63,574 nt of DNA, filler included, from Rhabdomonas costata (GCA_019059605.1; 36 parts of 36 records of this genome joined end to end with filler, not necessarily neighbours in it), one strand, 5' to 3'; shown: positions 1 to 51,329, counted from the first letter of the whole stretch. Made by a program: numbers and translations. The notes: generated by a model from the letters alone, not told the origin.

Positions 1-180
1 TTTTTGGGGTACGCGAATTTTCAGTGTGTTATTGTGAATTAAGAGCCGTGACACGCTGGCTGGTTCCGGACCGCTTGGGCGCTTGTGCGTTCGCCGCATC
101 TTGTCATTGGGGTGCAGGGCACTTGGTTCCTTGCGGGTGTAGCTGTTGTATCGTATGAGTGAGAGAATAGCAAAATGAAC

Positions 181-1247
181 CTTTGCTGCGAGCACAGGGG
201 CAATGCAGCACAGCCCAATGGGCTTCTTGGCGCCGTGGAAGGCCCGAAGCACCGCGGCAACGTCGGGCTGCACGGTCATGTTCGTGCCCTGGGTGGCGAA
301 GTCGCACAGGTTCTTGGCAGCTCCAAAGCCTACAGGTGAAGGAATTGCATCAAGGACCAGCACCCAGAACTCCTGGGACAAGCCGACGAAAAGGTCTTCC
401 GGGGATTGACGGCTGATGCAGGAGTGGTCATGTATCGTCAGAACATTTTTTAAACATCGAGTCGGGTTTGCACTCCGTTTATAGCCCCGCCAGTGGCTGC
501 CGCTGGGGCGAGCATTCTGCAACTAGCTTCGAAATCTTACATAATGGTATCCCAAAAATATATTCAAAAAGATAGGCAAGCGCGGCAAGAAGGCGAAATG
601 GGGGCATTCCTCCCGGAAAGATCACGGCGTCCTGGGAAGAGGCGTCCAGCTCGGACAGAGGCTTGATGTTCCCCCGGGCAATCCGGGCGGACTCCACCAG
701 AACATTCCGGGACTCTGTTTCCGAATAAAATTCGAGAGGAACCATAGAACCAACAAAAACCGAAAGTTCATCATATTTTTGGTCAGGCACTTAACAAGGC
801 GGTCTTTTGCTGTGCCTCCTGTTCTGTGTGTTTTTGGAAGACAAGAGCAATGCAGGGAATCGAATTCTGCGCAAAAAAAAAACACTGTCTGTGTGTGTGT
901 GCTCCTGCTGGGGTGCCGGGATACGGGTTGTCCATGAATACGTCAACTTGCAAGCCCTAAGCTGCCCGCATTGACACTGTACCATCGTGGCCCTCCCTAA
1001 GCCCCTAAGGCGTGTCAGTGGCACGCGCAAAAGAGAGGACGTATCTATCACCAATAGCATGGTGAGAACCTGCAACCAATACTTTATTGCTTTGCGCCAC
1101 TGTGAAGGAGTGTTGGCAGCTGCATTTAGGTCACATCACACCGCCCTCGGCGGGGGCACCCTTGAGGTGGTTAATGACGTGCATCTGGGGGCGGTCCGGA
1201 GCGAAGATCGAGGTCTGTGCCTTGGCCCTGCTCAGGTGGATCAGTAC
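181..1247 (-). CDS. ES1/ElbB (GATD3-like, DJ-1/class I glutamine amidotransferase superfamily) protein; internal exons 1247-1142, 714-610, 329-181
   Basis: Spliced translation [82 protein letters not shown]...[20 protein letters not shown] contains the ES1 motifs [19 protein letters not shown] and [10 protein letters not shown]. Confidence 0.93.
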
Positions 1248-1670
1248 CTGCAAACCCAACCAGGCCAGTACAAACAAAACAAAGGGAGAACAATGGATCC
1301 GCTTTGGATTTCAAGAATACTTTGATTCAATTGGTCGGAAGTAGGCAAGAGACGCGAGGATCGTTAGCCCAGCAGCAGCTCGGCCACCTTGGTGCTTTCG
1401 CCACTGCTCTAGTGTTCCAAGAACAAAACGCACACACATACGTTGCGCACTTGGCCTTTTTTCTGGGGAAGACTCACGTTTCTCTTCCCTCCTGGGCTCC
1501 CCACCTTCAATCACGCATGACCAAAAATTGACGAATTGCTGTATGGCAGTGTGGCTGACGGTGTTCCAAAGCGCTGGAAAGGTGACGTTTGAGTCCTCGG
1601 GAGTCCAAATTACTTTCCGCAGGCTGTGGCTGTATGCTAAATCTCGTAGACGAGGTGCCCCACACCCACA

Positions 1671-1770
1671 NNNNNNNNNNNNNNNNNNNNNNNNNNNNNN
1701 NNNNNNNNNNNNNNTTAATTAATTAANNNNNNNNNNNNNNNNNNNNNNNNNNNNNNNNNNNNNNNNNNNN
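1671..1770. other. Artificial contig spacer N44-TTAATTAATTAA-N44 (first of 35 identical spacers; 36 contigs of ~1.67 kb)
   Basis: The same 100-bp unit, with stops in all six frames, recurs about every 1.77 kb. Near-equal contig lengths suggest a length-sorted concatenated assembly. Confidence 0.99.
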
Positions 1771-2013
1771 GGGGTGGGGGGGGCTTTCAGGGCGATTCGG
1801 AAGCGCACAATTATTTATTTTTGCTGCAAATGGGCATAACCAATGCTCAACACCTTCCCTTTCCCTTCACAGACACAGAACCCCCTCTCATCGCGCATAT
1901 CTCCCCAATTCACGTGGAAGTTTTCTATCTGCCTCGCGCAATTAGATTTTCTGTCCCTCCCTATTGCTTTGCCACTGTTTTGTGGAGTGTGGATGAGCTT
2001 GTCGGCCGCGCAG

Positions 2014-3441
2014 TTTGTGGGAGCACAAGGAGCAGTACGCGCAGCTGTGGGAAACCCGGTGTCGCAGGCTGTTCTGCTGCCTCCGCTCCAGGATTGCCGA
2101 CAGCTCGGTGTTCTCAGGCATGTGCTCCTCTCAAGAAAACCTGTGCCGCATGGAGGCGGGGATGGGGATGCATGGGCACTGTGGCCAACCATACCGGGGC
2201 TCTGCTCCGGGGGCGAGTATTGCGAAAATCCCGCAAAACCTTATAATTTTTGGTTGTGTACTTGAGTTCTCCTCCTTTAGATTTGAAAATCCGGGGGTTT
2301 GGTAGCGAGACATCCCCCCATGTCCTGGATCTGAGTTTGAGAGTTTGACCACCAATCTTCCCGGATGTAGAGGATTGTGTAACCTGTGTGCTTTGTGCTC
2401 TGTTTCCGCGTCCCGGGCGCACCCCGCAGACATCGCGCGGATGCTGTGCTGGGTGTGGCGTGGGGTGGACATCGTGCCGTCGGACGTGGTGGCGGGGATG
2501 CTCCTGCTGTACCTCAGTGAGCGGCCCTCCCCTGGCGCTGGACATGGGTCCACCTCCAACGGCAGGGACGTCCCCCCAGTTCCTCCGGAGACCTTGCGGA
2601 CGCTCGATCACTACTCCAGGTCTCCCCCCGTGCCACCGTGTTGGGCATGTTCGACGAAAGTATCAGAGTACTGCCCTTCCCCTTCTTTGTTCTGCATCGG
2701 GTTTAAGTATGGCTGCTTGCCGACAGCCGCTGTACGTGGGCAATTGTGAACATTGCTTTGCTAGTTCTTTTCTGTATTGATTGGTTTAAAAAAAAGTGCA
2801 TAAGGCTTTCGTGATTTTGATGTGAACAGAAGGGTAGTGGTAAACGAAGGCCATCTCTCTGAACCTTTGGCTCGAGCGCAGGTGTCAGCTGATCGGGTGA
2901 ACGCGGATGCAAGTGTGTTGTATATGCATTGCATAAGGGGTCTGCATAAAAAACAGCAGCCACATGAAGGATGGCGGGCCAGGTTTGGGGTGCGCCCAAG
3001 AGGAGGGTGCCATTTCGTGGCAGAAAATCAACACTTTTTTGCTGGAGGGTCTCTTTTTCGCGTTTGTGCCCTTCCAGAATTCTTACTTTGGCATGACGCG
3101 GAGGATACGCTCACGCCAAAAAGGTTGAAAAACGAATTCGGATTTTTCTTGGACGAAAGCCTAAAACGAACACTTTTTCGCTGTCTAGCAGCACCTAAGG
3201 GGCATTTTTTTTTCTTGTTTGTTTTGTCCTTTATTCCTGTTGCCGAGATGGTGCGGAACATACATACCCGAAAATTGCATGGGTTGGTACCAAAGAAAGT
3301 CCCATGATGGTAGGTACTACATGGGGACCTATGGTTGGATGGTATACGCCGCTTCTCGGCCTCGGGGGTGCCCTCGGCTGCTACTGCGGCTGCTGCGGGG
3401 CGGCGCCCCTCCGATCGTGCGAGGCTCCCTTCCCCACCAAC
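2014..3441 (+). CDS. Diacylglycerol lipase (DAGL alpha/beta-like), partial; exons 2014-2117, 2430-2619, 3314-3441
   Basis: LWETRCRRLFCC...VFS-DIARMLCWVWRGVDIVPSDVVAGMLLL...LDHYS-RYYMGTYGW resembles the DAGL pre-catalytic region (DxVPSDxxAG, AYGW). Intron 1 is GC-AG, intron 2 is GT-AG. Confidence 0.75.
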
Positions 3442-3733
3442 NNNNNNNNNNNNNNNNNNNNNNNNNNNNNNNNNNNNNNNNNNNNTTAATTAATTAANNN
3501 NNNNNNNNNNNNNNNNNNNNNNNNNNNNNNNNNNNNNNNNNAATTCGTTGTGCCCCATCTGAAGCCAGTCGTTATATGTCGTGCCGTCCATCCATCCATC
3601 GTACTCAGGCGGAGTAGGTTTGGGGGGGCTTGTGCGGATATTTTTCTCAGGTCCTTTGCTCTGTGTGTCAGTGTTAGGGTGTTGCCCATTGCCTTCCCTT
3701 GATTCCTCGCCTTTCCACTTCGCCTCTGCACCA

Positions 3734-5210
3734 ATGGAGGCGACCTCCGTGCCTCCCTCCTCGGCGTCCACCGCAGCCTCCCCTCCGCTGTCCTCCTCAG
3801 CTTCTGCCCGCAGCTATGAGCTCCTAGGGCGGCCGCTTTCCGGGCCCTTCACCATCCCTTCCGGCATCGCCACGGTCACTCTGGACGGCCTGGAGCTCCT
3901 GGCGCGGACCGTGCCGCAGCTCGGGGTGCTCACCACGAAGAGCATCGGCCCAGAGCCCAGAGCGGGCAACCGTGAGCCGGTGTACGCCCAGCTGGAGGGC
4001 CAGTCTGGAGCCTGGGTCAATGCCGTGGTATGGGTTGGAATGATCGGAGGGTGGGGGGCTTGAAATGATTGATGAGGGGTCTCAATCCATGGGTTGGTGG
4101 CTGTGCCGTCAGAACCTGGGCGAGAATATGATCATCCGGCACCCCCCCCCCTTACAGTTCTGCATTGGCCTGATTAATTGGGGGTACAACGCTATATATG
4201 GAATGCTGAATCAAAAAAAATGCCTTGCTGCCTTTCCGGGGGTCCATCACGTGGGTTATTGTTGTTATTAGAAACTCATTTCTTGGTGAGTTTTAGCTAA
4301 CTTATCGTATAGGATACTTTTAGGGGTAGATGGGGGAATGGCAGCACGGTAGATGGGGGGATGCGCGTCTTGCGAACCATTTACATTGTTTCTCATTAAA
4401 CCCCAGTTAGCGCCATACCCAAAGGGGCGTTCTGAGATGCGACACTTCCGACATTGGGCAGCAGTGCTAACAGTCGAGAGAATGCCAAGCGCACCGGGGG
4501 AGTGTGGTGCAGCACACAAAGAATTGAATGAAAGCAGGCTGTTCAAGGATGGACAACAGGGATTTGTGATGTAACCGCTAACAGTGGCTTTCCGTACCAT
4601 TGTCTGAAGGGCGCAGGGGCTGCTGTTGTCTGCACCGGACTTTGAACACTGGACAATGTGCCACTTTGGTCAAGTTTCGCAATTCTCTATATAACGGGGT
4701 TATGCCGTATAACGCTCCCCCTCTCCAAAAAAAAAGCAGACCGGACTCCCGTTGCATCTGCAGGGGGCCTCGTCCCATATCGGCTCTGACAGAAAAAGCT
4801 CAATTTTGCGCTATTTTATGCAGCCTGCTGCATAAATCCGGGTTTAGTTTTCTCACCGTCCAAGTGAAACGACGATTTTTAATTTTCGGAACTGCTGTGA
4901 GCAGCAAAGGTCTCTTCTCGCTCTTGTTAATTAACTTACACCCACCTCTGGCACGCGCCCACGCACGCACGCAGGCAACCACCCACCCATCCACACTTAC
5001 TCGCTCGCTCAGGGGTTGGCCAACCCTGGCTGCTATGAGTTTGCCAAGGAGCTGCGCGAGCTGAAGCTTCCCCCGGGGCGCTTCCTGCTGGTGTCCATTA
5101 TGGGCGGCAACACGGCGGAGTTTGTGCGAGTGGCAACTACCCTGGGCCCCTTCGCGGACGGCCTGGAGCTCAACTTCAGCTGCCCCCACGCTGAGGGCCA
5201 CGGGCAGGCC
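3734..5210 (+). CDS. pyrD: Class 1 (1B-like) dihydroorotate dehydrogenase, N-terminal part; exons 3734-4027, 5013-5210
   Basis: Motifs PFTIPSG, TTKSIGPEPRAGNREP, NAV-GLANPG (across a GT-AG intron), LLVSIMG and LELNFSCPH with the catalytic Cys. Confidence 0.85.
4622..4660 (+). repeat. Dispersed conserved motif GCTGTTGTCTGCRCCGGACTTTGAACACTGGACAATGTG, copy 1 (in the pyrD intron)
   Basis: Near-identical copies at 33794-33848 and 41320-41372 in unrelated contigs. Confidence 0.85.
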
Positions 5211-5493
5211 NNNNNNNNNNNNNNNNNNNNNNNNNNNNNNNNNNNNNNNNNNNNTTAATTAATTAANNNNNNNNNNNNNNNNNNNNNNNNNNNNNNNNNN
5301 NNNNNNNNNNCCAGAAAAAATGGTATGTTCCCCCGCCCCCTGGGAAGTCTTCCTAACCCCATTAAACGCATCCTGAAGGCTCCTATGGGTGGTAGGCATG
5401 GCGTCCTTAGACGTCCCCAAGCACCATCAATGAGTGTGCATACATGTGTTGTGGGTTGTTCTTCACTCACGTGGCTGGATGAGGTGCACTCGT

Positions 5494-5783
5494 TGAAAGG
5501 CTTCGAACTTAGTTTATATACACAGTGGAGCGCGAGATGGAAAGAACCACAAACCCAGGTAGATCAGGCGGGAAAAGGAGCAAGGCGAAGGGCACACGAG
5601 ACACACGAAGAGAAGCCCAGACAAGCGGAGATTGTAGGGAGGGTCCAGATGACATCCGGGACGGTGAAAGGCAACCGAGCCCGTCCGCCAGGAAAGCAGG
5701 CCCAATCCCGGAGTGGGATCTAAGCCCGCAAGGGAAGTCGGGCCCAAGGGAAGTGTACTAGCGTGGAAAGTTGGGTACCCACA
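5494..5783 (-). mobile_element. Possible solo LTR (~290 bp, TG...CA on the minus strand)
   Basis: Minus strand begins TGTGGG and ends TATATAAACTAAGTTCGAAGCCTTTCA. Shares short words (CCGAGCCCG, GGGAAGTCG, GAGTGGG) with the 7081 repeat. No target-site duplication seen. Confidence 0.35.
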
Positions 5784-6199
5784 AAGAGATCTTTAAACGT
5801 GCTAATAAAAAGGGTTCCGCGTACACTGTGGATCGGGGGTCATGTGGGGTAAGTCAACCCCACGTGACAAGAAATTTGGGCAAGGCAGATGGACCGACAA
5901 AACTTGAGACTCGATGGGCCCATCTGCCGAAAGTTGGGAGCCCAGGTGGTAGTGGACCTCGTGTCGTCCCGAGAAAAAATTCACCCTGGTCAAGTGCACC
6001 CAAGTGTGTTGTGGGTTGCTCTTCATTCACATAGCATGTATGGGGCGCACTTTTTGCATCCACCTTTGACCACCTTCTTTGCAAACCCTTCACAGTTTTT
6101 GACAGCCTTCGTAGTGTTTGGGTGGGCGATTTCCGAAAGAAGCTTTTTTGCACTCGCCTTCGGATGGGTCCCAACTTGTTGCGTCGTTTGCTGTGCAAA

Positions 6200-6980
6200 T
6201 TCGGGCTGGTGGTGCAGGGGCACTATTCCTACTGCCGGGTCACGTGATGAGGAAGAGGAAATTCTTCGACATGAACAGAATGCTCTGCCACCGAGAAAGG
6301 CTGCACCTCAGCCGGATTCAAGTATGCCCTCTCGGCGTGCAGCTTTATCTCTCTTGTTACCGTTGGCGTGAAATGTCTCTGCGCTGTACTGAACAGAATT
6401 TTCTTTACTGGTGATGTGGGGTGTGTACTGCACTTTTCGCTCATCGCACGATTTTCGGCGCCAGCATAAATGCAAGAACCATCTCCATCTGACCTCGCTG
6501 TTGCCTCCATTCAGCATAGTGGGCATAATGTGCCAGGTGCACCCTCCGCTGCGCTGCACAAAATAAAAAACGAGCCAATGGGCACGCACACGCCCGCAGA
6601 GTAAACTGGGAGACCCCGAGTGTTTCCGGAGGCCTTTTGTGTATAAAATGACCCTAAGCCTGCTTCGGCTTCGCATTCTGTCCTAGCACGTAAAATATAG
6701 TCCAATTCCAATAATTTGGCATTGGAATGTTTGCAGGCCTGGCTCGATTTTCTGCTTTCCTATGTATCTCAATAAGCGGATGAAGACGAGGAGATTGTGG
6801 ACGAAGATGAGGACAGCGATGAGTCCGAGGATGCAGAAGACGCCGCCGTTTCCGCCAAGCCCGCACCAGCGCATCCTCGGGACCATGGCTGCCGCAAACG
6901 GCCGAGCTCCGGCTCCTCCGCCCGCGCCCTCCCCGCGGGACACGGCGCGGCACATCGCGATCGGAGTCCCACAACAACAC
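6200..6980 (+). CDS. Hypothetical acidic low-complexity protein, two exons (~6200-6321, 6777-6980)
   Basis: GSRDEEEEILRHEQNALPPRKAAPQPDS joins TDEDEEIVDEDEDSDESED in phase through a GTATGC...TAAG intron. The start coordinate is approximate. Confidence 0.4.
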
Positions 6981-7080
6981 NNNNNNNNNNNNNNNNNNNN
7001 NNNNNNNNNNNNNNNNNNNNNNNNTTAATTAATTAANNNNNNNNNNNNNNNNNNNNNNNNNNNNNNNNNNNNNNNNNNNN

Positions 7081-7262
7081 GGCCCTCGGCGAAAGCGAGG
7101 CCAACCCGGGGGAAAGAAAGTCTCCTCACCTAGGTGAGTTGACAGCGCTCACAAAGCGAAAGCTTTGTCGGGAGGGACCACGGAGGGAAGCGGATCGAGT
7201 GGGCTACGCGGGGAAGTCGCAAGAGCCACGTAATTGGTCCGAGCCCGCCGTGCCGTCTGACA
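7081..7262 (-). repeat. Structured dispersed repeat, copy 1; sharp boundary reads TGTCAGACGG on the minus strand (LTR-like end)
   Basis: 7132-7262 is nearly identical to 15924-16053. Identity stops abruptly at ...GCCGTCT(G/A)ACA. Confidence 0.85.
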
Positions 7263-9068
7263 CCCTTCCAAAGCCCGCGGCCCAGCTTTTAGCTTTTAGC
7301 TTTTAAATTGTGTGCAATCATTCCATAAAACCTCCAGCAAGCGCAAATAAATTGCAAAATTACGTCACCAGAACAATATTTAAGAGCTCCAAAAATTCCT
7401 TTAAAAAACAAGCGGCACTAAATACACTAAAAACAATAAAAACAACATTTGGTGTTTACCGGCGGCAATAGCACAGCAGAAATTGGGGTAATAAGCAATG
7501 TTGTGGTGAAAAAACGAAGGGAAGTATGAGTGCAGATGGTATGATGGACATTGGATCAGGGATGCGTGTAAGAAACCAGTTCAATTGCACGTCCTGTTGG
7601 TACCAGTACGTTTGAATCACGGTTTATTTATGTGGATATAAATCTTCTTGTAGTGAAGCATTCTGCGCATTTTTTGAATTTAAGAAACAAAAGAGATGTT
7701 CCGTAATAAACAGCATCAGGAAAAACACAGTAAAACGAAAAATGATGCTAATAATGAGCTATTGTTTAGTTTTTATGATCGCGAGCTTGTTAACTAAATT
7801 GAATTATCTCTTGAAGAGTTTAAATGGTTCAAAACTATACACAACACCTGTCTAATACCGCATTTTTCATAAAACGTACATACATATGTGGTAGGGAATC
7901 GCTACCATCGCTTTGGAGACAATGTTGTCCCAACAAAAGCCATCAATTGGAAGGAATAACATATAAGTATTTCAACTCTAGTTTTTAATATCCATGGACC
8001 ATGGTAAAGTTTGAGGTTGGTGTTTTGGTAATTGGTATTGACTTGAATTGACGTGACAACATTTTTGTGAGCTATATCAGTTTGGAGTTAAAAGTTTGCA
8101 CAGAATAAACATTCATGTTTGAAACATCCATAAAAACAGTTTATACTATTTGGTTTTGGTGTAGAAAATATTACTATTACAATTACGCAGTAGCCTGTCA
8201 TTCTTGCTTTTGAATGGCATGTGTGTTTTTGGTATACAATATTGTTGTGTGACACTTTTACATCCAAGAAAAATTGCGTCTATTAAGTTATGACCTTCCT
8301 TAGGAATGGATAAAATGCAACACGATCAATAACTAAAGTAAGGAATTTTAGAGCAGATTCATATTTGGTAAAGTACTCGTAAACACGCGTTATTTATTTG
8401 ACAAATGGGCGTGTATGATTTTGTGTTGGCTTAGTGTTTGGCGTTGTTATGTTCTGTCCAGATGTTGCAAACATGTGGATGGCGTAAATTAAAGATAAAT
8501 TATCTGGCAGATGTGGTAGAGGACCTCGCGGATCCACATAAAGTGTAGTACACCGTAAACAAGAACCACAGAATTCGTGGCTTTTTATGTAGGTTTTTGC
8601 TCCCCAAGCACAGCATTTCCGCTGAGTGCAAAAATCCAAACGTTTTTCTTGCTCACGCAGCGCGTATCAACGCAAAACAATACGTTTCCATGATACGTGT
8701 ACAAGCCAAGAGCGCAGGACAGTAAGGACAGTATTTATCCCAACAAAACANNNNNNNNNNNNNNNNNNNNNNNNNNNNNNNNNNNNNNNNNNNNTTAATT
8801 AATTAANNNNNNNNNNNNNNNNNNNNNNNNNNNNNNNNNNNNNNNNNNNNGGTGTTTTGTACCACACCTGCATTATTTTTTGTTCAAAACTGATGGTAAA
8901 AACCCTCGACAATGGTAGACGGTTGAGTATGCAACGGGAGTGATGACAGAGGTACTGGTGTGTGGCGGTGGCCCAGCACCCCGATGGCACCTTCCCGCAA
9001 AAATTCAAAAACTCGACCCACGAGTAAACGATGTGAGGGCAGGTGAAGTGGGGGATAGGGGTGGGAAC

Positions 9069-20491: not shown

Positions 20492-21108
20492 ATGACTTTT
20501 GCACGTGCGATACTTCGCTTGCTCCTGCTCCACGTTCTCACTGTCTCGGCATCGACAAGGACGTCCCACTGCTGTGCCATAGTCTACATGGTCCACCCAA
20601 ATGAAGCAGGCAACTTGATCGAGAGCGTGAACAGGATGTTCACGTTCTACAACCAGCGGTACCTCCACCCAACGCTTCTCTTTTATGACATCAAGTTGGC
20701 TGGGCAGCTGGCCTCACTGCAAACGACTTTGCAGTCCGCTCTCAAGCCGGAGTGGTTCCGCACCCTCGAGTGGATTCAGGTCCTGCGCTTTGAGGAGGGA
20801 TTGGATTTCTCTCGATTTGTTTACGTCGGTCACAACTTCCGCAACCCCCCCCCCTTCTTTGTTTCAAGGCTGTTCAGGACCGTATCTGTGCATTTTTCCT
20901 GTTGCAGATTCCATGGGACCCTCCGAAAGACGTCCACCGAGAGGATGTTTTGGAGGCTGTACGTCATTGGTTCCCTGACTACACGCTGATGACTCAGTTC
21001 TGGTTTTCCGACATTCTTCACCTGAACGCCACCAAGGGGTTCAACTACTACCTCAGGCTCGACACAGACTCGATGCTGCACTCTGGTTTTCCCGTTGATC
21101 CCTTCCAG
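20492..21108 (+). CDS. Glycosyltransferase family 15 (KRE2/MNT1-like alpha-1,2-mannosyltransferase); exons 20492-20779, 20908-21108
   Basis: Signal-like N-terminus, then AIVYMV...LIESVNRM...YNQRYLHP, YTLMTQFW and FNYYLRLDTDS...DPFQ, matching the GT15 pattern. Confidence 0.8.
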
Positions 21109-23317
21109 GTGAAGAATGTCGGAAAACCACCCCCCNNNNNNNNNNNNNNNNNNNNNNNNNNNNNNNNNNNNNNNNNNNNTTAATTAATTAANNNNNNNNN
21201 NNNNNNNNNNNNNNNNNNNNNNNNNNNNNNNNNNNGGTTTTGGTTTCCTCCAAAAACTTTTTCTCCCACCTTCCCGTGGATGCTCAGAAGCAAAAGTTTT
21301 TGGAGGAAACCGTAACTTTCAAAGTCAGCAACCACAGCTGCGACAAGCAAGCAAACTCCAAACGCGAAACACATTCCGATAGTTTTCCTGGGGAGACCTT
21401 CCTTCTTGCGAGCCCAGCGGCCGGGCTAATGCCCTCCGCGCGGCATGGGTGAAGAATCAGTATTCGATGAACGCAAAGACGAAAAAATAAAAGAGACAAG
21501 GAGGGTCAAAGAGGCAACCAGTTCCGATATACTGTCGGGGGGTGACACTTCACAGAGTGGCTCAGGAAGCTCCGCTGACTTCTTGCAAATCAGTGTGTTA
21601 TGGCGCTTGCGGCGCAGTGCCCCACGGTTCTTAACGTCACGCGATACGAAGAAAGGCTCGCCAAAGTCTGTGGTGCTGCTTCAGCCTCAGGAGACGACCG
21701 GCAGTAAGTTCAGCAGATGCGAGAAACAGAACCCAGACGCCAACACTCACACGCACACCAGGAAGGACCAAAGGAAGTCCCAGTAGGCTTTTTCTCCGTG
21801 GGCTGCGGGGACTTTTGGGATCCTCTCCCTGTGTCAAAATATACAGGGGTGCGCGTTAACGGAGGCAATCCAAATGGACGTGGTGCACAGGCATGGGGAG
21901 AAATGTTGAAGCGCAGGCATCCGGCGTGCAGACGATACAGATGGGTGGGCAAAACCAGAGTTCCTCCTACATCATACGCCCCTGTACTCACAGCGAACTT
22001 CACCAGATACAAACAAAGCGAGAGTGGAGTCTCCCTTCGTCGAGTCTTCGGTTGAACAAAAACGTTTGAATAAATGTCATCGCTCATTCCCTTCTCAGGG
22101 ATAAGGAAGGGTACCTCGTGGACGCTTCCTGGCGAGGGAGCCGTGAGAGAGTTGTGCATCGGCCCACCCTGCGCATAAAAAAAGGCAGCGATACGAAGGA
22201 GCCAGCCCCAGAATAATCACCAGCATCCCGGAAAGATCTCAAAACGTGCAGCATGAAAAATGGATCTGAGGGGCATTCGGAAGGTTAACTTCACAAGTCT
22301 TTTCATTAGGGTGGAAGCTCAAAAATAAAACACGCAAAGCGGTGTCTTCAAAAAATAAACGATAGCACTCCACATTTCTGGAACATACGCCACACTCCCC
22401 ACCAAGGCCGAACGCCATTTTCTTTCCGGGATTTCAATTCCACCCCCATTCTCTGCCGTCCTTCCCGTCATTCTCGCCATGGCACACCGTTGATGACCCC
22501 AGGGCCCCCGGGGAGTGCTTATCAGCCTGTGGCAAGCGGTGTGCACGAGTGCGGTCAAGTCAAAGTAATATCCCGCAAAAAAAAAGGAAAGATCACTGGA
22601 ACTAGGGCTCCCCACACCACCAAAAGTGCAAAGCACTCGTCGTAAACAATGTGAACTCACGCCCATGTCCATACACTTGCGGGAGGAAGCTGCAACTCCC
22701 CTTTCATCAATAGACGCAAAACCACCAAAAATTAATTCGACGTACACGCGCTTTCCCCCCGTTACCCGTTACCCCCATTACAGAAAAAATCCAGGGGTGG
22801 CCAAAATTAAGGGCTACCAACAGAAACCATGTCACCACCGCGCCCGTTAGGCCAAAAAGGTAATCTTACATCCGTCTTCCTCCTCATCCTCCCCACCCAC
22901 ACCCNNNNNNNNNNNNNNNNNNNNNNNNNNNNNNNNNNNNNNNNNNNNTTAATTAATTAANNNNNNNNNNNNNNNNNNNNNNNNNNNNNNNNNNNNNNNN
23001 NNNNGTCCTGTTATAAGTGTGTGCTTGTGACAGGTCCAGCACCCAACAGACGTTTGCAAACATCGTTTCAGGCATTCCCTCAAACTCTGGTCCCCCATGC
23101 TCACGGGAAGCGGGGGGGCTGGAAAGGAGCGCACAGGGTCCTGTTATAAGTGTGTGCTTGTGACAGGTCCAGCACCCAACAGACACACACACACACACAC
23201 ACTCTCTCTCTCTCTCTCTCTGCCTGTGGTTGTACCTCCACCCTTCCACAGCTGTCCTGTGCATCTGTGCTTTGATGTCAGGAAAGAGAAGGAGGAATAA
23301 AGGGGACTGGAGGAAGC

Positions 23318-23538: not shown

Positions 23539-24783
23539 AGTTCACTTCCCCCACGGAGTCACACAGATAAAAGGAGGGGCGGAAAGCGGTCGGGTTCGCG
23601 AGCGGGGCGGGAAGCGGAGAAGCGGTGTCGCCCTCCACAATGCCAACCCCCACTGCTGTTGCACCCCACACAGGTAGAGGCAGTGACGGAGCCCTCTTCA
23701 ACGAAGAGAGAAAGAGTAACGGCGGGCTCGGCAGGCCAGGGACGGGACGGCGCTGCCGCAGTGCCCAAGAAGCGGCTGAGACTCCGAAGCACGCCACCAA
23801 AAGGATAGCTTTGCGCAGCAAAGCTCGGGAAAACGACGACAGGCACCAATCAACAAAATCGACAAGATAAACAACGGGAAAAGAGGTTCTCTGTGCCGCA
23901 GCGTCGCGGGGTGGAAAACGCATGCCAAGGGGCCGCACCAAGGGGGGGTGTGCCTTCTCCATTTGGTTCCAGTTGACTCTGTTCGACTTGGGTTTCTGTT
24001 TCACCAAAGTCTCACGAAACAAAAAAAAGACACAAAAAGGACGCAAGCTCATAGTTGCACAGTTCAAACACTCTAAAAAATATTCAAGTGCATCAATAAA
24101 CATTTGCGGCGTTCTGAAAAATGCGCAGTTCCGTGTATCCAGAAAACGGCTGTTTCCGACCCCAACTGCACAACTGCAGTCAAGACACAAACACATTTAT
24201 CACTTTCTCACTCCACACAAATTCTAGCAATCATTAACCATTTTTCGAGGTGGTTGCCATTCCATTTGTGCCGCCGTTCTGAATTTGAACGGCAAAAAAC
24301 ACACCACCGATGCAGAAGTCTTTTTCAAAAAATTCTCTGAACCAAGAACATCCGCACCGGACAAAAGTGAAGGCGGCTGGCTGCCATAATGGCTGGAAAT
24401 GAACCGCCAAAAATGGTTCTTGGACAGTGGTTCCCTTTGGGGCACAGAGGCACGGATTATGAAAGTTTTGTGGTCCTGCAAACGGAGCCAAGGGATTCCA
24501 CAATAAACGGGATCTCGTCTTAGGCTAAAAAATACCGAATGAAGCACGGACCACCGAATAAGTCAACACGAATTCATCAGTACGCACCAAGCACCGCAAA
24601 TGACAGAGCCCGGTCCAGGGAACCGCGGCGGAGTCCAACTTCGATCCCCCCCCACCTAAACTCACCCAACACANNNNNNNNNNNNNNNNNNNNNNNNNNN
24701 NNNNNNNNNNNNNNNNNTTAATTAATTAANNNNNNNNNNNNNNNNNNNNNNNNNNNNNNNNNNNNNNNNNNNNGGTTTGGTTT

Positions 24784-24890
24784 GATGTAGGGTACGGCTC
24801 CATTCAAACGTCTGCTCCCTTAAATAAACGCTCTCAGAGAGAGCGCTTATTTAAGGGAGCAGACGTTTGAATGGAGCCGTACCCTACATC
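24784..24890. repeat. Near-perfect inverted repeat (52-bp arms, 3-nt loop, 1 mismatch) followed by telomere-like CTAACCCTGACCCTAACC
   Basis: Read directly from the sequence. It lies at a contig start. Confidence 0.9.
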
Positions 24891-25029
24891 TAACCCTGAC
24901 CCTAACCTGGACCTGAGTTGTGAGGATGCCGCGTCAGAACGTAAAGGCGAAGGCGTGTGTAAGCGGAGGGGGGTCGTTGTCTGGCGATGTTAAGTAAAAG
25001 AAAACAACAGAAAGGAAAAACATACTTCG

Positions 25030-36491: not shown

Positions 36492-37197
36492 GTTGGTCCC
36501 TTCTCCCCCACTACCTTTTGTTTCTGTTCAAGGGGACTGGATGAGAATAGTCAGTCACGTGCTTTCATTGCTTTAAGTGACCTTTTGGAAAACCCTTCTG
36601 ATTTTGTACTTTAATTCGGGGGGGGGGGACAAAATTAGCACAGTCATCTGTGGAGATGCATTATGCTTTGACTGAGCGGCACGTTTGGATTGGACCTTTA
36701 CGGGAGGGAGACGGGGAGATGTACTTGCGCAGATATTTGAGATTATTTGAGGTGAGCAGCTTCAAGTCCCAGGAATCAAAAAGGCGAGACGATATTTTAC
36801 AGACCAGCGGCAAAGGGCTGTCTGCCCTGCGTCCTGTCTGCTTAACCACTGCGGGTTGGCACCCCGTTCGTGCTAACTTGCCCTATATTATTACCCAGTT
36901 TTTTATATAAAAAACGATATTTTCGCTGGCCACAAGATTGGCTCCCAAATGATTCTCTGTGACACTCTCATTTCCTTCTTCACACAAACCCCATTGCCGT
37001 AATTTGGCTGTGTAGCGAATGAGTCCCTTCTGGATGGTATCCTGACAAACAAAAANNNNNNNNNNNNNNNNNNNNNNNNNNNNNNNNNNNNNNNNNNNNT
37101 TAATTAATTAANNNNNNNNNNNNNNNNNNNNNNNNNNNNNNNNNNNNNNNNNNNNAAAAAAAGCGCACGCCACCTTTTACGAGCCTGAAAGATCCTT

Positions 37198-48340: not shown

Positions 48341-49598
48341 GGAGACCCAGGTATTAGATCCAGTGAGCGTGCGGGAAATGAAGAGACAGCAGGCGTTCCT
48401 TGGCGTTCTGCCCCCCCAGCTTGCGAAGAATTGTGCTTTGGTTGCCTCGTGGGGCTCGAGTTTTAAGACGTGCTAGAAATGAGGCTCGGGATGTGGCACG
48501 GACGGCTTTGTTTCCCCGCGCATCGAATCGTAGGGCTCTAGAGATTTCCGCTTTCAGCATGAATGGGTTCTGCTGCAGCTGCTGAAGAGGGTGGGCGCCG
48601 TTGCGTTCCTCATCAGAACGATGCGGCCTTGGGTCGTTGGCAACCGGGATGGGGCGAACAAAAAACGGACGTGGGAAGACAGACGGGCGGAATAGATACC
48701 GTTCCGGGCTGGAAATTTCGTCGTTTGCTCTGTTTTGCGCGTGTATCCGCGTCGCTACTCCGTCGCGGTCCTCCGATTTTTGCTCAAGGCAATTACGTTT
48801 TATTCGCTTCTTTGTTGTTTCTTTTTTGGTACACTCCGTTTCTGTTTGTCTCTGCCGGTGCGAGCGCTGCTTCGGCCTTGGTCAAGGGCACGGAAGAATG
48901 GAGGGCATGTCGGACGCCACTCGCCTGGGCTTGCGTCACGACAAACCTGCAATGTGCGTTGGATGCTCCTTCGCTCCATTCCCACCTGCAAATACTGGGC
49001 AAAGTGCACTGTTTAAGCTTTTGTAACCCACTTCCAGTGAAGAAGGTGAATAATTGGGCATGAAATTCAGTATATCATCAACAGGACAGTTTCGTGTCTT
49101 GGCCAGACTGACGGAAACAGGCTAAAGCTCAACCGATGGGGCCGAACAGGTAGACTCTGCTTTTAAAGGTGAAGCTGCATTATTTTCGCAACAAGACAGC
49201 CATTTCAAACCAAGTGTAAAGGTTTAAAGTTGAAATGTCTGAGTTTCAAAAGGGCACAAAGTACATTATCAGCGACAAGGGAGAAAGTGAGATATGCAAA
49301 ACAACGACTGCTAACCACCACTCGCTTACACAGCACATAGAATATCTTTGGAGCGAGTCAACAACTCAACCGTGTCACAGCCCCGGAACCTGCGGAGAAT
49401 AACGCATGAAGATCACAAATTAGTGGGGACATCTNNNNNNNNNNNNNNNNNNNNNNNNNNNNNNNNNNNNNNNNNNNNTTAATTAATTAANNNNNNNNNN
49501 NNNNNNNNNNNNNNNNNNNNNNNNNNNNNNNNNNGTGTTGTTTTTATTTTTTAAAAATAATTGTTTGTATTCAATTCTTTTATTTTCAATTTCTTCAA

Positions 49599-50276
49599 GT
49601 TACATTTGAAGAAATTGAAAATAAAAGAATTGAATACAAACAATTATTTTTAAAAAATAAAAATGACATTACAATAAATCAGCAATATTTAATTTTATGC
49701 TTGTATACATTGCAACCACCTATACGTATGGAATATATCGATATGGAGATTATGCATAATAAAGCACCAAAAAGTCAAACAAAGAATTTTATTGTTAAAA
49801 AAGATGACAAATATTATGTTATCATCAATAAAGACAAAGTCATTGCATCACATGGTGTCGGTATTTTTGAATTATCTAGTGATCTTTCAAAAATAATAGA
49901 TCAATCACTTGAATATCTACCACGTAAATATATTTTATCTTCAATTACAGATATTCAAAATCCTATGTCTAGATTACATTTTTATCACTTAGTACATAAA
50001 ATATTTAATAAAAAAGTGGGTGTTGATATATTACGCAGTGCATATATTACTCATATGTATGATGACAAACACTTTACAATGAAACAAAAAGTTGAATTGG
50101 CGCGATTAATGAGAAATAGTCAAGGTGTAGCATCTTCTATGTATCATAAAATAGATCAGAAATATAATGAAGATGTTATAATTAAAAAATTTGTAGATCA
50201 AATACAAGATGTTGATCATAGTAAACTAAAAACAGGAATTTATAACTTGCTCATAAAATTAAGACGTGAAGAATGA
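49599..50276 (+). CDS. Tyrosine recombinase of the polinton-like virus/virophage (OLV11-like) type, 5'-truncated
   Basis: YLILCLYTLQPPIR (catalytic R), INKDK (K), VDILRSAYIT (box II R) and LARLMRNSQGVASSMYHK (catalytic Y). Intronless and very AT-rich. The frame extends upstream to the fold-back at 49599. Confidence 0.78.
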   Translation, partial: VTFEEIENKRIEYKQLFLKNKNDITINQQYLILCLYTLQPPIRMEYIDMEIMHNKAPKSQTKNFIVKKDDKYYVIINKDKVIASHGVGIFELSSDLSKIIDQSLEYLPRKYILSSITDIQNPMSRLHFYHLVHKIFNKKVGVDILRSAYITHMYDDKHFTMKQKVELARLMRNSQGVASSMYHKIDQKYNEDVIIKKFVDQIQDVDHSKLKTGIYNLLIKLRREE

Positions 50277-50285
50277 TAGAAAAAT

Positions 50286-50304
50286 ACCCGTATAATTTAC
50301 GGGT
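50286..50304 (+). terminator. Hairpin ACCCGTA-TAATT-TACGGGT just after the recombinase stop codon
   Basis: Perfect 7-bp stem 9 nt after the TGA. The function is inferred. Confidence 0.5.
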
Positions 50305-50380
50305 GCTCTAGAATCTAAACATCGTAATATGCTAGGTTAAAGTTTTTAGTGTTCCGAGGTGTTCTGGGCTGTTCTGTACT

Positions 50381-50412
50381 TGTTCCGGGGTAATTAAAAA
50401 TACCCCGGAACA
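50381..50412. terminator. Hairpin TGTTCCGGGGTA-ATTAAAAA-TACCCCGGAACA between convergent ORFs
   Basis: Perfect 12-bp GC-rich stem in an AT-rich background. The function is inferred. Confidence 0.55.
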
Positions 50413-50459
50413 GACCAGATGATCTTAAAAACATATTTATATTATAGATCTTATATATC

Positions 50460-50903
50460 TTATAATATAATAAAATATAATAAAATACATACATACAGTA
50501 TTGATGTTTGTATCGGATCAGACATTAAAAATTGTTCTATAAATTCTGGTTGATAAGTATATTCATAATTCAAAATTTGTTGTGCAATAATATTTCTATC
50601 ATTAATTAACCACATTGTATACATGTATCTATCAATATTATCTCTGTCTTCAATATTCAACATATATGGATCATGTGATGATAAAACATCATCACATGCA
50701 GTATTTTTTGATAAAACATCATCACATATATTATCTTTTGATAAATCATCATCACATTCAGTATTTTTTGATGTTTCATCATCACATTCATTATTTTCTG
50801 GTTGTACTTCTTGTTTTGTGTTGTTTATAACTGTTTGTATTTTTAGTTCAGATCTATTTTTTTCAATATGATTTATAATTTTCTTTTTAATAATATTATA
50901 CAT
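50460..50903 (-). CDS. AT-rich virus-like hypothetical protein with four 10-aa CDDxxSKNTx repeats
   Basis: 147-aa intronless ORF with a 30-bp tandem repeat at 50672-50790. It may continue upstream into 50911-51096 through a frameshift. Confidence 0.5.
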   Translation of the reverse strand: MYNIIKKKIINHIEKNRSELKIQTVINNTKQEVQPENNECDDETSKNTECDDDLSKDNICDDVLSKNTACDDVLSSHDPYMLNIEDRDNIDRYMYTMWLINDRNIIAQQILNYEYTYQPEFIEQFLMSDPIQTSILYVCILLYFIIL

Positions 50904-51329
50904 ATTATATTCATCGATACACAGGTATTTTCTTTGTTAAAAAAACATTCGTATTTGAAGTACATTGTACAGTTTTTGTTTTATCAAGACAGAAATTTAT
51001 GATTGGTTTCGATTCATTTACATCCATCCAATGTGCATATTTCTTTACAATTTCAACATCATTGACATCATCTATAATAATAAAAGAACGACAAGCTATA
51101 GATGATGTCAATGATGTTGAAATTGTAAAGAAATATGCACATTGGATGGATGTAAATGAATCGAAACCAATCATAAATTTCTGTCTTGATAAAACAACAA
51201 CCNNNNNNNNNNNNNNNNNNNNNNNNNNNNNNNNNNNNNNNNNNNNTTAATTAATTAANNNNNNNNNNNNNNNNNNNNNNNNNNNNNNNNNNNNNNNNNN
51301 NNGTGTGGGGGTGGGCTGACCTCCCGCCA

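Follow-up and report, generated by a model that had tools for sequence, protein, structure and literature searches.

The window analysed here is a 63,574-nucleotide stretch of the Rhabdomonas costata assembly (GCA_019059605.1), a chain of 36 contigs of ~1.67 kb each with 35 N...TTAATTAATTAA...N spacers between them. One of these contigs (49535-51202) encodes a predicted tyrosine recombinase (Yrec) catalytic domain, probably of the OLV11-like type described from eukaryotic viruses. On balance, and with modest confidence, the contig is read as a ~1.5-kb fragment of an AT-rich, small double-stranded DNA (dsDNA) virus-type element of protists, with a Polinton-like virus (PLV) or virophage, in a free, co-amplified or integrated state, as its likeliest origin. 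The contig and its main gene are as follows (GC, the G+C content):

49535..51202, no strand: entire AT-rich contig, 1,668 bp, GC 0.253, flanked by two N/TTAATTAATTAA spacers
49599..50276, + strand: tyrosine recombinase (Yrec) fragment, 225 aa plus stop, comprising the catalytic domain and C-terminal helices

The contig stands apart in composition and coding density, as the first-pass annotation of this DNA had claimed. Its GC of 25.3% compares with 0.395-0.606 for the remaining 35 contigs, so that 1 of the 36 is AT-rich. The unique sequence of the contig amounts to ~1,485 bases (from ~49602 to ~51086), and three open reading frames (ORFs), namely the Yrec fragment and two neighbours termed ORF-B and ORF-A, take up ~88% of it. 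The ORFs flanking the recombinase gene are equally AT-rich, unlike the contigs at ~50% GC.

The + strand frame of the recombinase has no stop between the first bases of the contig and the double stop at 50274-50279. By our own arithmetic, in which ~9% of random codons are stops at ~25% GC, 225 open codons would occur by chance at ~1e-9. The tyrosine-recombinase motifs that the first-pass annotation had read in this frame are present codon by codon: LYTLQPPIR (R43), INKDK (K80), DILRSAYIT (D143, R146), MRNS (N173) and MYHK (Y182). Residue conservation was counted in an alignment with 157 relatives, each denominator being the number of relatives aligned at that position:

49725..49727, + strand: codon of R43 (LYTLQPPIR), first catalytic Arg, R in 149/149 relatives
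49836..49838, + strand: codon of K80 (INKDK), candidate catalytic Lys, K in 152/155 relatives
50025..50036, + strand: D143-I-L-R146, counterpart of the HxxR box with Asp for His, second catalytic Arg retained (R146 in 155/155)
50109..50120, + strand: M171-R-N173-S174, counterpart of the second His/Trp position, Asn at 173
50142..50144, + strand: codon of Y182, predicted nucleophilic tyrosine, Y in 151/153 relatives

Because R43, K80, R146 and Y182 are near-invariant in the relatives, the motifs are, as judged from the alignment, not a chance pattern. A tyrosine recombinase is expected to have two catalytic arginines, a lysine in a beta hairpin and a nucleophilic tyrosine, and all four are found. 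K80 lies between two beta strands of the structural model (E71-76 and E88-91), and the extent of the structural alignment (model 1-185, Cre 137-327) is consistent with Y182 being the counterpart of the Cre tyrosine.

The two canonical histidines are replaced, the HxxR histidine by D143 and the His/Trp found ~9 residues before the tyrosine by N173. The first-pass annotation had taken this as the sign of a divergent active site; the replacements are real, but they are not special to this gene. Position 143 is occupied in the 157 relatives by D (84), N (27), S (9), R (8), Q (7), K (5), G (4) and T (4), with H outside these eight commonest residues. Position 173 is H in 111 relatives, N in 16 (16/153), T in 15, S in 10 and Q in 1, with Ser in both of the closest relatives. 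At the HxxR histidine, Asp is a family-wide trait, and Asn at the second histidine is a recurrent minority state, neither pointing to decay of the copy.

The modelled fold agrees with the motifs. An AlphaFold2 model built on a 16-sequence alignment has a pLDDT (predicted local distance difference test) of 87.7 and a pTM (predicted template modelling score) of 0.76. Foldseek against the PDB matches it to XerH, XerA, Cre and other tyrosine recombinases with a probability of 1.00 and a best E of 2.9e-4. VIA-align places Cre highest (Z 15.9-16.0, root-mean-square deviation 2.5 A over 163-164 residues), with XerA (Z 14.1), XerH (13.2) and lambda Int (11.6) below it. Named recombinases, integrases or topoisomerases of type IB make up 45 of the 50 rows listed by VIA-align, and the remaining 5 belong to the phage repressors SroF, YopR and MrpR, which share the tyrosine-recombinase fold. 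On the strength of this model the product of 49599-50276 is a tyrosine-recombinase catalytic domain, as the first reading of the sequence had proposed.

The N-terminal core-binding domain is absent from the contig, and the relatives do possess an N-terminal region. Homology begins at residue ~104-116 of the relatives and extends as far as the axis of a foldback that forms the 5' end of the contig. Because similarity reaches this axis, the recombinase is truncated there rather than starting there, and the gene in the organism may be complete.

The recombinase belongs to a family that is large, poorly annotated and without a Pfam model. A first search returned 15 relatives of up to 50% identity, which are all metagenomic and lack Pfam domains. 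An exhaustive search returned 1,074 cluster representatives at E<=1e-3, of which 216 are at <=1e-10 and 24 at <=1e-30 (clusters counted at 50% identity). Low GC is common among the nearer members, with 20 of the 23 loci of >=36% identity below 38%. Gene context was taken from 73 loci (3 of IMG/VR and 70 of metagenomes), which are cited here by L numbers. A FastTree tree, inferred for the window and 50 locus-derived sequences after removal of duplicates, stop-containing sequences and those of <140 aa, and bearing no support values, places the window as sister to L004, in a clade that also contains L014/L015, L024, L025 and L026. The marine group of capsid-adjacent relatives forms a separate and distant clade.

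The gene neighbourhoods of the relatives are viral where they are informative. In the marine group (27-30% identity), contigs of 3.3-22.7 kb have a conserved order of Yrec, a 431-aa protein and proteins of 641, 325 and 514 aa. On the contigs of the L001/L002 group (16-21 kb; 27-29% identity), the gene for the 431-aa protein follows directly downstream of the Yrec gene. The model of this protein has a pLDDT of 60.6, with a confident beta core and disordered loops, and it aligns with the double-jelly-roll capsid proteins of PBCV-1 (Z 19.3), Faustovirus (18.3), mavirus (15.6), Sputnik (15.3) and PRD1 (11.7). Its top 15 structural rows are all double-jelly-roll capsid or scaffold proteins, with a best BFVD E of 8e-14, and the capsid gene was found again in 21 of the 73 loci (18 distinct). 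Contigs of the L001/L002 group also encode a Pox_A32 ATPase, a DUF5906 (S3H) helicase and GIY-YIG nucleases. Nearer to the window, L023/L024 (43% identity) have Pox_VLTF3, Pox_A32 and a fibre-like protein with Peptidase_S74 as neighbours, L014/L015 (40%) have Bro-N and VRR_NUC, L025 (36%) has a Prim-Pol, and L026 (34%) has Capsid_N at 22.5 bits, just below the 24-bit cut-off. The context of capsid, A32 ATPase or primase-helicase is thus one of relatives only, namely the L001/L002 group, L023, L025, L026 and L032.

Two of these neighbourhoods are of interest in themselves. On L001, 4875-11975 holds the Yrec, the 431-aa double-jelly-roll capsid and the 641-, 325- and 514-aa proteins, in an order repeated in L002, L003 and L037; the three unannotated proteins are probably further virion proteins. 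On L023, the Yrec gene shares 1-7772 (7.8 kb, 27% GC) with genes for a VLTF3-like factor, an A32 ATPase, a fibre-like protein of 757 aa with Peptidase_S74 and a C2H2 zinc-finger protein, a gene mix that is unusual for so small a stretch.

A PLV or virophage type of source is therefore supported at the level of the family. The first-pass annotation had assigned the contig itself to such an element; that claim is supported for the family, with its viral matches and its capsid, ATPase and helicase neighbours, but is not proven for the contig, which is without capsid, ATPase or host junction. We infer the assignment of the contig to a PLV or virophage rather than to a giant virus, and two considerations favour it: the relatives with context sit on small contigs with PLV-like gene sets, and integrated multi-copy PLVs are reported, in passages of PMC10120064, to shatter in short-read protist assemblies. 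The same passages describe PLV and virophage insertions with a tyrosine recombinase and a drop in GC as common in protist genomes and as fragmenting in short-read assemblies.

A giant-virus fragment is a possible though rather unlikely source. By this account, the contig would derive from a member of the Nucleocytoviricota (e.g., the AT-rich Imitervirales) that infects or accompanies the protist, and the recombinase would be a gene of the giant virus or of a virophage or PLV integrated in it. Structural matches in BFVD speak for it. The 14 best matches (E 1.3e-10 to 5.8e-6) are Hyperionvirus (two; E 1.3e-10), Tetraselmis virus 1, Virus NIOZ-UU159, Hokovirus, Aureococcus anophagefferens virus (AaV, E 5.7e-8), Harvfovirus (annotated 'Integrase'), Pyramimonas orientalis virus (PoV, two), Qinghai Lake virophage (E 5.8e-7), Heterosigma akashiwo virus (HaV01) and three unnamed entries. 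Giant viruses account for 9 of the 11 named matches, the rest being Virus NIOZ-UU159 and the one virophage, and all of these viral proteins rank ahead of any phage integrase, the first of which stands at rank 15. The 25% GC of the contig would also fit mimivirus-like genomes, as would hairpins after stop codons. L023 carries a VLTF3-like gene, the Pfam VLTF3 family being named after poxviruses. An OLV11-like Yrec is itself reported in AaV in the part of Yutin et al. 2015 (PMC4642659) that treats this enzyme. Against a giant virus, no relative with informative context is on a contig longer than 22.7 kb, and those beside a capsid gene have gene sets of the PLV kind. The three nearest ESM Atlas clusters, unnamed and mostly viral, have Preplasmiviricota as the commonest phylum in two and Uroviricota in one, with Nucleocytoviricota in none; these calls rest on 4-5 members of known phylum per cluster. 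Furthermore, a single contig of the 36 is AT-rich, and a tblastn search with 14 hallmark proteins of related loci found no giant-virus hallmark in the other 35.

An improbable alternative is a capsid-less, host-resident transposon of the Crypton kind, or a decayed solitary remnant of a viral insertion. The closest relatives are repeatedly on 1.3-2.4 kb contigs with little beyond the recombinase gene, and Cryptons are named as Yrec-encoding eukaryotic transposons in a passage of PMC12220804. By contrast, short contigs are usual in the collections searched, the ORF is intact over 225 codons with flanking ORFs that are as AT-rich, unlike the ~50% GC contigs, and the family members with context adjoin virion and replication genes. 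The closest relatives were also considered as complete elements of 1.3-2.4 kb and this was rejected, as terminal direct or inverted repeats were absent from every locus of <5 kb and from the 12 longer whole-contig loci tested (>5.8 kb).

A bacterial or phage contaminant with a XerC/D-type or phage integrase, for which may be cited the fold common to Xer, Cre and phage integrases, the fourth-ranked ESM Atlas clusters (bacterial tyrosine recombinases bearing PF00589) and one relative in a metagenome-assembled genome (MAG) labelled Myxococcales, is very improbable, as tblastn had no match among 50,697 phage records, a scan of genomes from 185,579 prokaryote species gave 1 match (on a 1,788-bp MAG contig), neither PF00589 nor a PHROG matched, and the phage integrases of BFVD rank below eukaryotic-virus proteins. 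The bacterial or phage affinity that the first-pass annotation had held to speak against a viral origin did not appear. The sole relative from the prokaryote collection, L074, has 24% identity and is probably mis-binned viral DNA.

Several results weigh against the PLV or virophage reading. Besides the giant-virus share of the BFVD matches, the closest relatives (>=44% identity) are on contigs of 1.06-4.5 kb without informative neighbours. PF00589 (Phage_integrase) matched 0 of 16 family members at E<=1, and no recombinase was among the PDB matches of the single sequence or of the hidden Markov model (HMM) profiles of 16 and 146 members, the latter two matching unrelated helical proteins only. 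The link to OLV11 and to ORF3 of PgVV (Phaeocystis globosa virus virophage) is an indirect one, by published description and structural matches. On the contig itself (49535-51202) there is no capsid, ATPase, helicase, terminal inverted repeat (TIR) or host junction, and both neighbouring ORFs are orphans. The other 35 contigs of the window gave no match to 14 hallmark proteins from related loci (tblastn, best E 0.21), 8 of 8 long ORFs on them are without a Pfam match and so lend nothing to the protist label of the window contigs, and Rfam over the whole window found nothing at gathering score. The missing hallmark genes are no argument against a viral origin, since the contig is too short: PLV and virophage genomes are recognised by a size of 15-40 kb, a capsid-ATPase module and TIRs, and ~1.5 kb of unique sequence with three ORFs offers none of the three.

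Pfam, PHROGs and PDB sequence searches of the three ORFs gave sub-threshold noise only (DUF1462, BAR_4, phrog_16520, elongin-C). Of the neighbour ORFs of closer relatives that were scanned, 6 of 10 had no match; L007 gave sub-threshold protease matches only, and L009 and L013 gave none. ARAGORN found no tRNA and hence no sign of a tRNA-type att site. The contig at 7081-8750, which has the second-lowest GC of the window (0.395), is without a stop-to-stop ORF of >=100 aa and resembles none of the viral hallmark proteins used as queries, so that it seems to be non-coding DNA and not a second viral fragment.

If the contig is a PLV or virophage fragment, the recombinase would probably act as the integration enzyme of the element. 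The full-length protein, of ~330 aa with the N-terminal DNA-binding domain that the contig lacks, would bind inverted half-sites. Y182 is predicted to attack the scissile phosphate and form a 3'-phosphotyrosyl link, with R43 and R146 holding the phosphate and K80 protonating the leaving group, while D143 and N173 would take the positions of the canonical histidine pair. Strand exchange in two rounds, via a Holliday junction, would then join the circularised viral genome to a host or giant-virus target.

Both ends of the contig are foldbacks, a feature that the first-pass annotation missed together with the cut of the recombinase at the axis:

49536..49668, no strand: 5' terminal foldback, arms 49536-49598 and 49606-49668 of 63 nt, 97% complementary, 7-nt loop 49599-49605
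50972..51201, no strand: 3' terminal foldback, arms 50972-51076 and 51097-51201 of 105 nt, 99% complementary, 20-nt loop 51077-51096

Each outer arm mirrors the sequence inside it, and the two together make up ~170 nt of the contig. The left arm of the 5' foldback mirrors coding sequence, and its axis cuts the recombinase ~105 residues short of the N-terminus of the relatives. The 3' foldback cuts ORF-A and by its mirroring gives rise to a pseudo-ORF (50999-51250). At least three comparable foldbacks lie at the ends of two other window contigs (24779-24895, 21237-21316 and 21001-21129), their inverted-repeat arms measuring 28-57 nt and their loops 3-51 nt, and weaker k-mer signals of the same kind occur on two further contigs, near 37055 and 58366. 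The foldback ends are read as an artefact of assembly, amplification or library, not a viral telomere, and inverted chimeras seem to affect this assembly or library more generally. Genuine hairpin telomeres of a mini-element were considered and rejected, as both foldbacks cut through ORFs and other contigs carry similar ones. Rfam gave 48 matches at E<=1 on the contig, all under gathering score and nearly all of a generic 'miRNA precursor' (microRNA) type on the two foldbacks, which attract such matches because of their hairpin shape.

The two neighbours of the recombinase gene are on the opposite strand:

50460..50903, - strand: ORF-B, 147 aa, convergent with the Yrec gene
50911..~51096, - strand: ORF-A, >=62 aa, truncated at its 5' end by the 3' foldback

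ORF-B has four 30-nt tandem units at 50670-50819 that encode an acidic cysteine peptide repeat of the CDDxxSKNxx type. It has no homologue among 5.8 billion proteins within the length range searched, where 3 candidates were scored and none reached E<=0.01. Neither ORF-A nor ORF-B has a relative in the 73 loci (best E 1.5). The two are in different frames and are parted near a run of seven T/A (~50903-50945, T7 near 50940); a single gene, divided by an error in homopolymer length or by a genuine frameshift, could underlie both.

The intergenic region of 183 nt that parts the convergent genes has a far stronger fold than shuffled sequences (z -4.83) and contains two structured features:

50286..50304, no strand: hairpin (stem of 7 bp), 10 nt beyond the stop codon of the Yrec gene
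50350..50412, no strand: GC-rich island of TGTTCYG repeats and a palindrome, 105 nt downstream of the Yrec gene

The hairpin is likely a 3'-end or terminator hairpin. In the island, direct copies of TGTTCYG start at 50350, 50360, 50370 and 50381, and an inverted copy lies at 50406-50412. The last two copies belong to a perfect 12-8-12 palindrome at 50381-50412 (TGTTCCGGGGTA / ATTAAAAA / TACCCCGGAACA), which is preceded by the three further copies at 10-bp spacing. TGTTCYG has 30 matches in the whole 63.6-kb window, 5 of them inside the 63 nt of the island, and no cluster of it was found in the other loci. In L004, the nearest relative (50% identity), a 10-12-10 GC-rich palindrome that likewise starts with GTTC lies 216 nt upstream of the gene. 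GC-rich palindromes near the gene are confined to the window and L004 among the 22 sequences scanned. Perfect palindromes of >=9 bp within 300 nt downstream occur in 3 of the 7 loci with >=44% identity and enough sequence, where they are AT-rich and differ in sequence.

Conservatively, the island and the hairpin are read as a pair of 3'-end (terminator) hairpins serving the two convergent genes. A more speculative and doubtful reading is that the island is the recombination site of the recombinase itself, with a lox-like core and phased TGTTCYG copies as accessory half-sites. If this were true, gene and site would form a compact lox-like module of a protist virus, in a Yrec clade without either canonical histidine.

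The genomes of protists are believed to be shaped by PLVs and virophages that integrate by means of tyrosine recombinases, and these viruses may defend against giant viruses, as stated in parts of PMC8547959, PMC10120064 and PMC12220804. The contig probably flags the R. costata assembly as holding such an element or its giant-virus partner. Its main value is as a pointer to re-examine the assembly for PLV, virophage or giant-virus sequence. The family data add a set of 1,074 clusters that no Pfam model covers and in which the active site is regularly without the HxxR histidine.

Among known systems, the endogenous virophage and PLV insertions of protists, such as the endogenous mavirus-like elements (EMALEs) of Cafeteria (PMC8547959) and the endogenous viral elements of protists (PMC10120064), are described in passages of these sources as AT-rich amid GC-richer contigs, with a tyrosine recombinase as integration enzyme and with fragmentation into small contigs in short-read assemblies. 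The contig resembles them in these respects and differs in lacking an insertion boundary, TIR and capsid gene, and for that reason integration is not demonstrated for it. Cre, XerH, XerA and lambda Int share the fold of the catalytic domain, and Cre, Xer and lambda Int also have the conserved Arg, Lys, Arg and Tyr at similar spacing. By contrast, identity to Cre, XerH, XerA and lambda Int in the structural alignments is 8-18%, with no match at the HMM level. Asp or Asn stands in the family at the HxxR histidine and Asn here at the His/Trp before the tyrosine, and the family is essentially absent from prokaryote and phage collections.

The closest known counterpart is the OLV11-like Yrec, which is presented in the relevant part of Yutin et al. 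2015 (PMC4642659) as a divergent tyrosine recombinase that occurs in PLVs, in virophages of the Organic Lake group, in PgVV and in AaV, and next to which a recombination hotspot of PgVV maps. The recombinase here differs in being a C-terminal fragment only and in belonging to a clade apart from the capsid-adjacent marine clade (27-30% identity, on a separate branch). The likenesses are that both are divergent enzymes missed by standard domain models, and both belong to small, AT-rich dsDNA virus genomes, beside a capsid, an A32 ATPase, an S3H helicase and GIY-YIG nucleases (as seen here in the relatives). The published description, together with the structural matches to the AaV and Qinghai Lake virophage proteins, thus links the family to the OLV11-like Yrec indirectly, and the contig adds one fragmentary member to an already described, Pfam-less kind of tyrosine recombinase of eukaryotic viruses.

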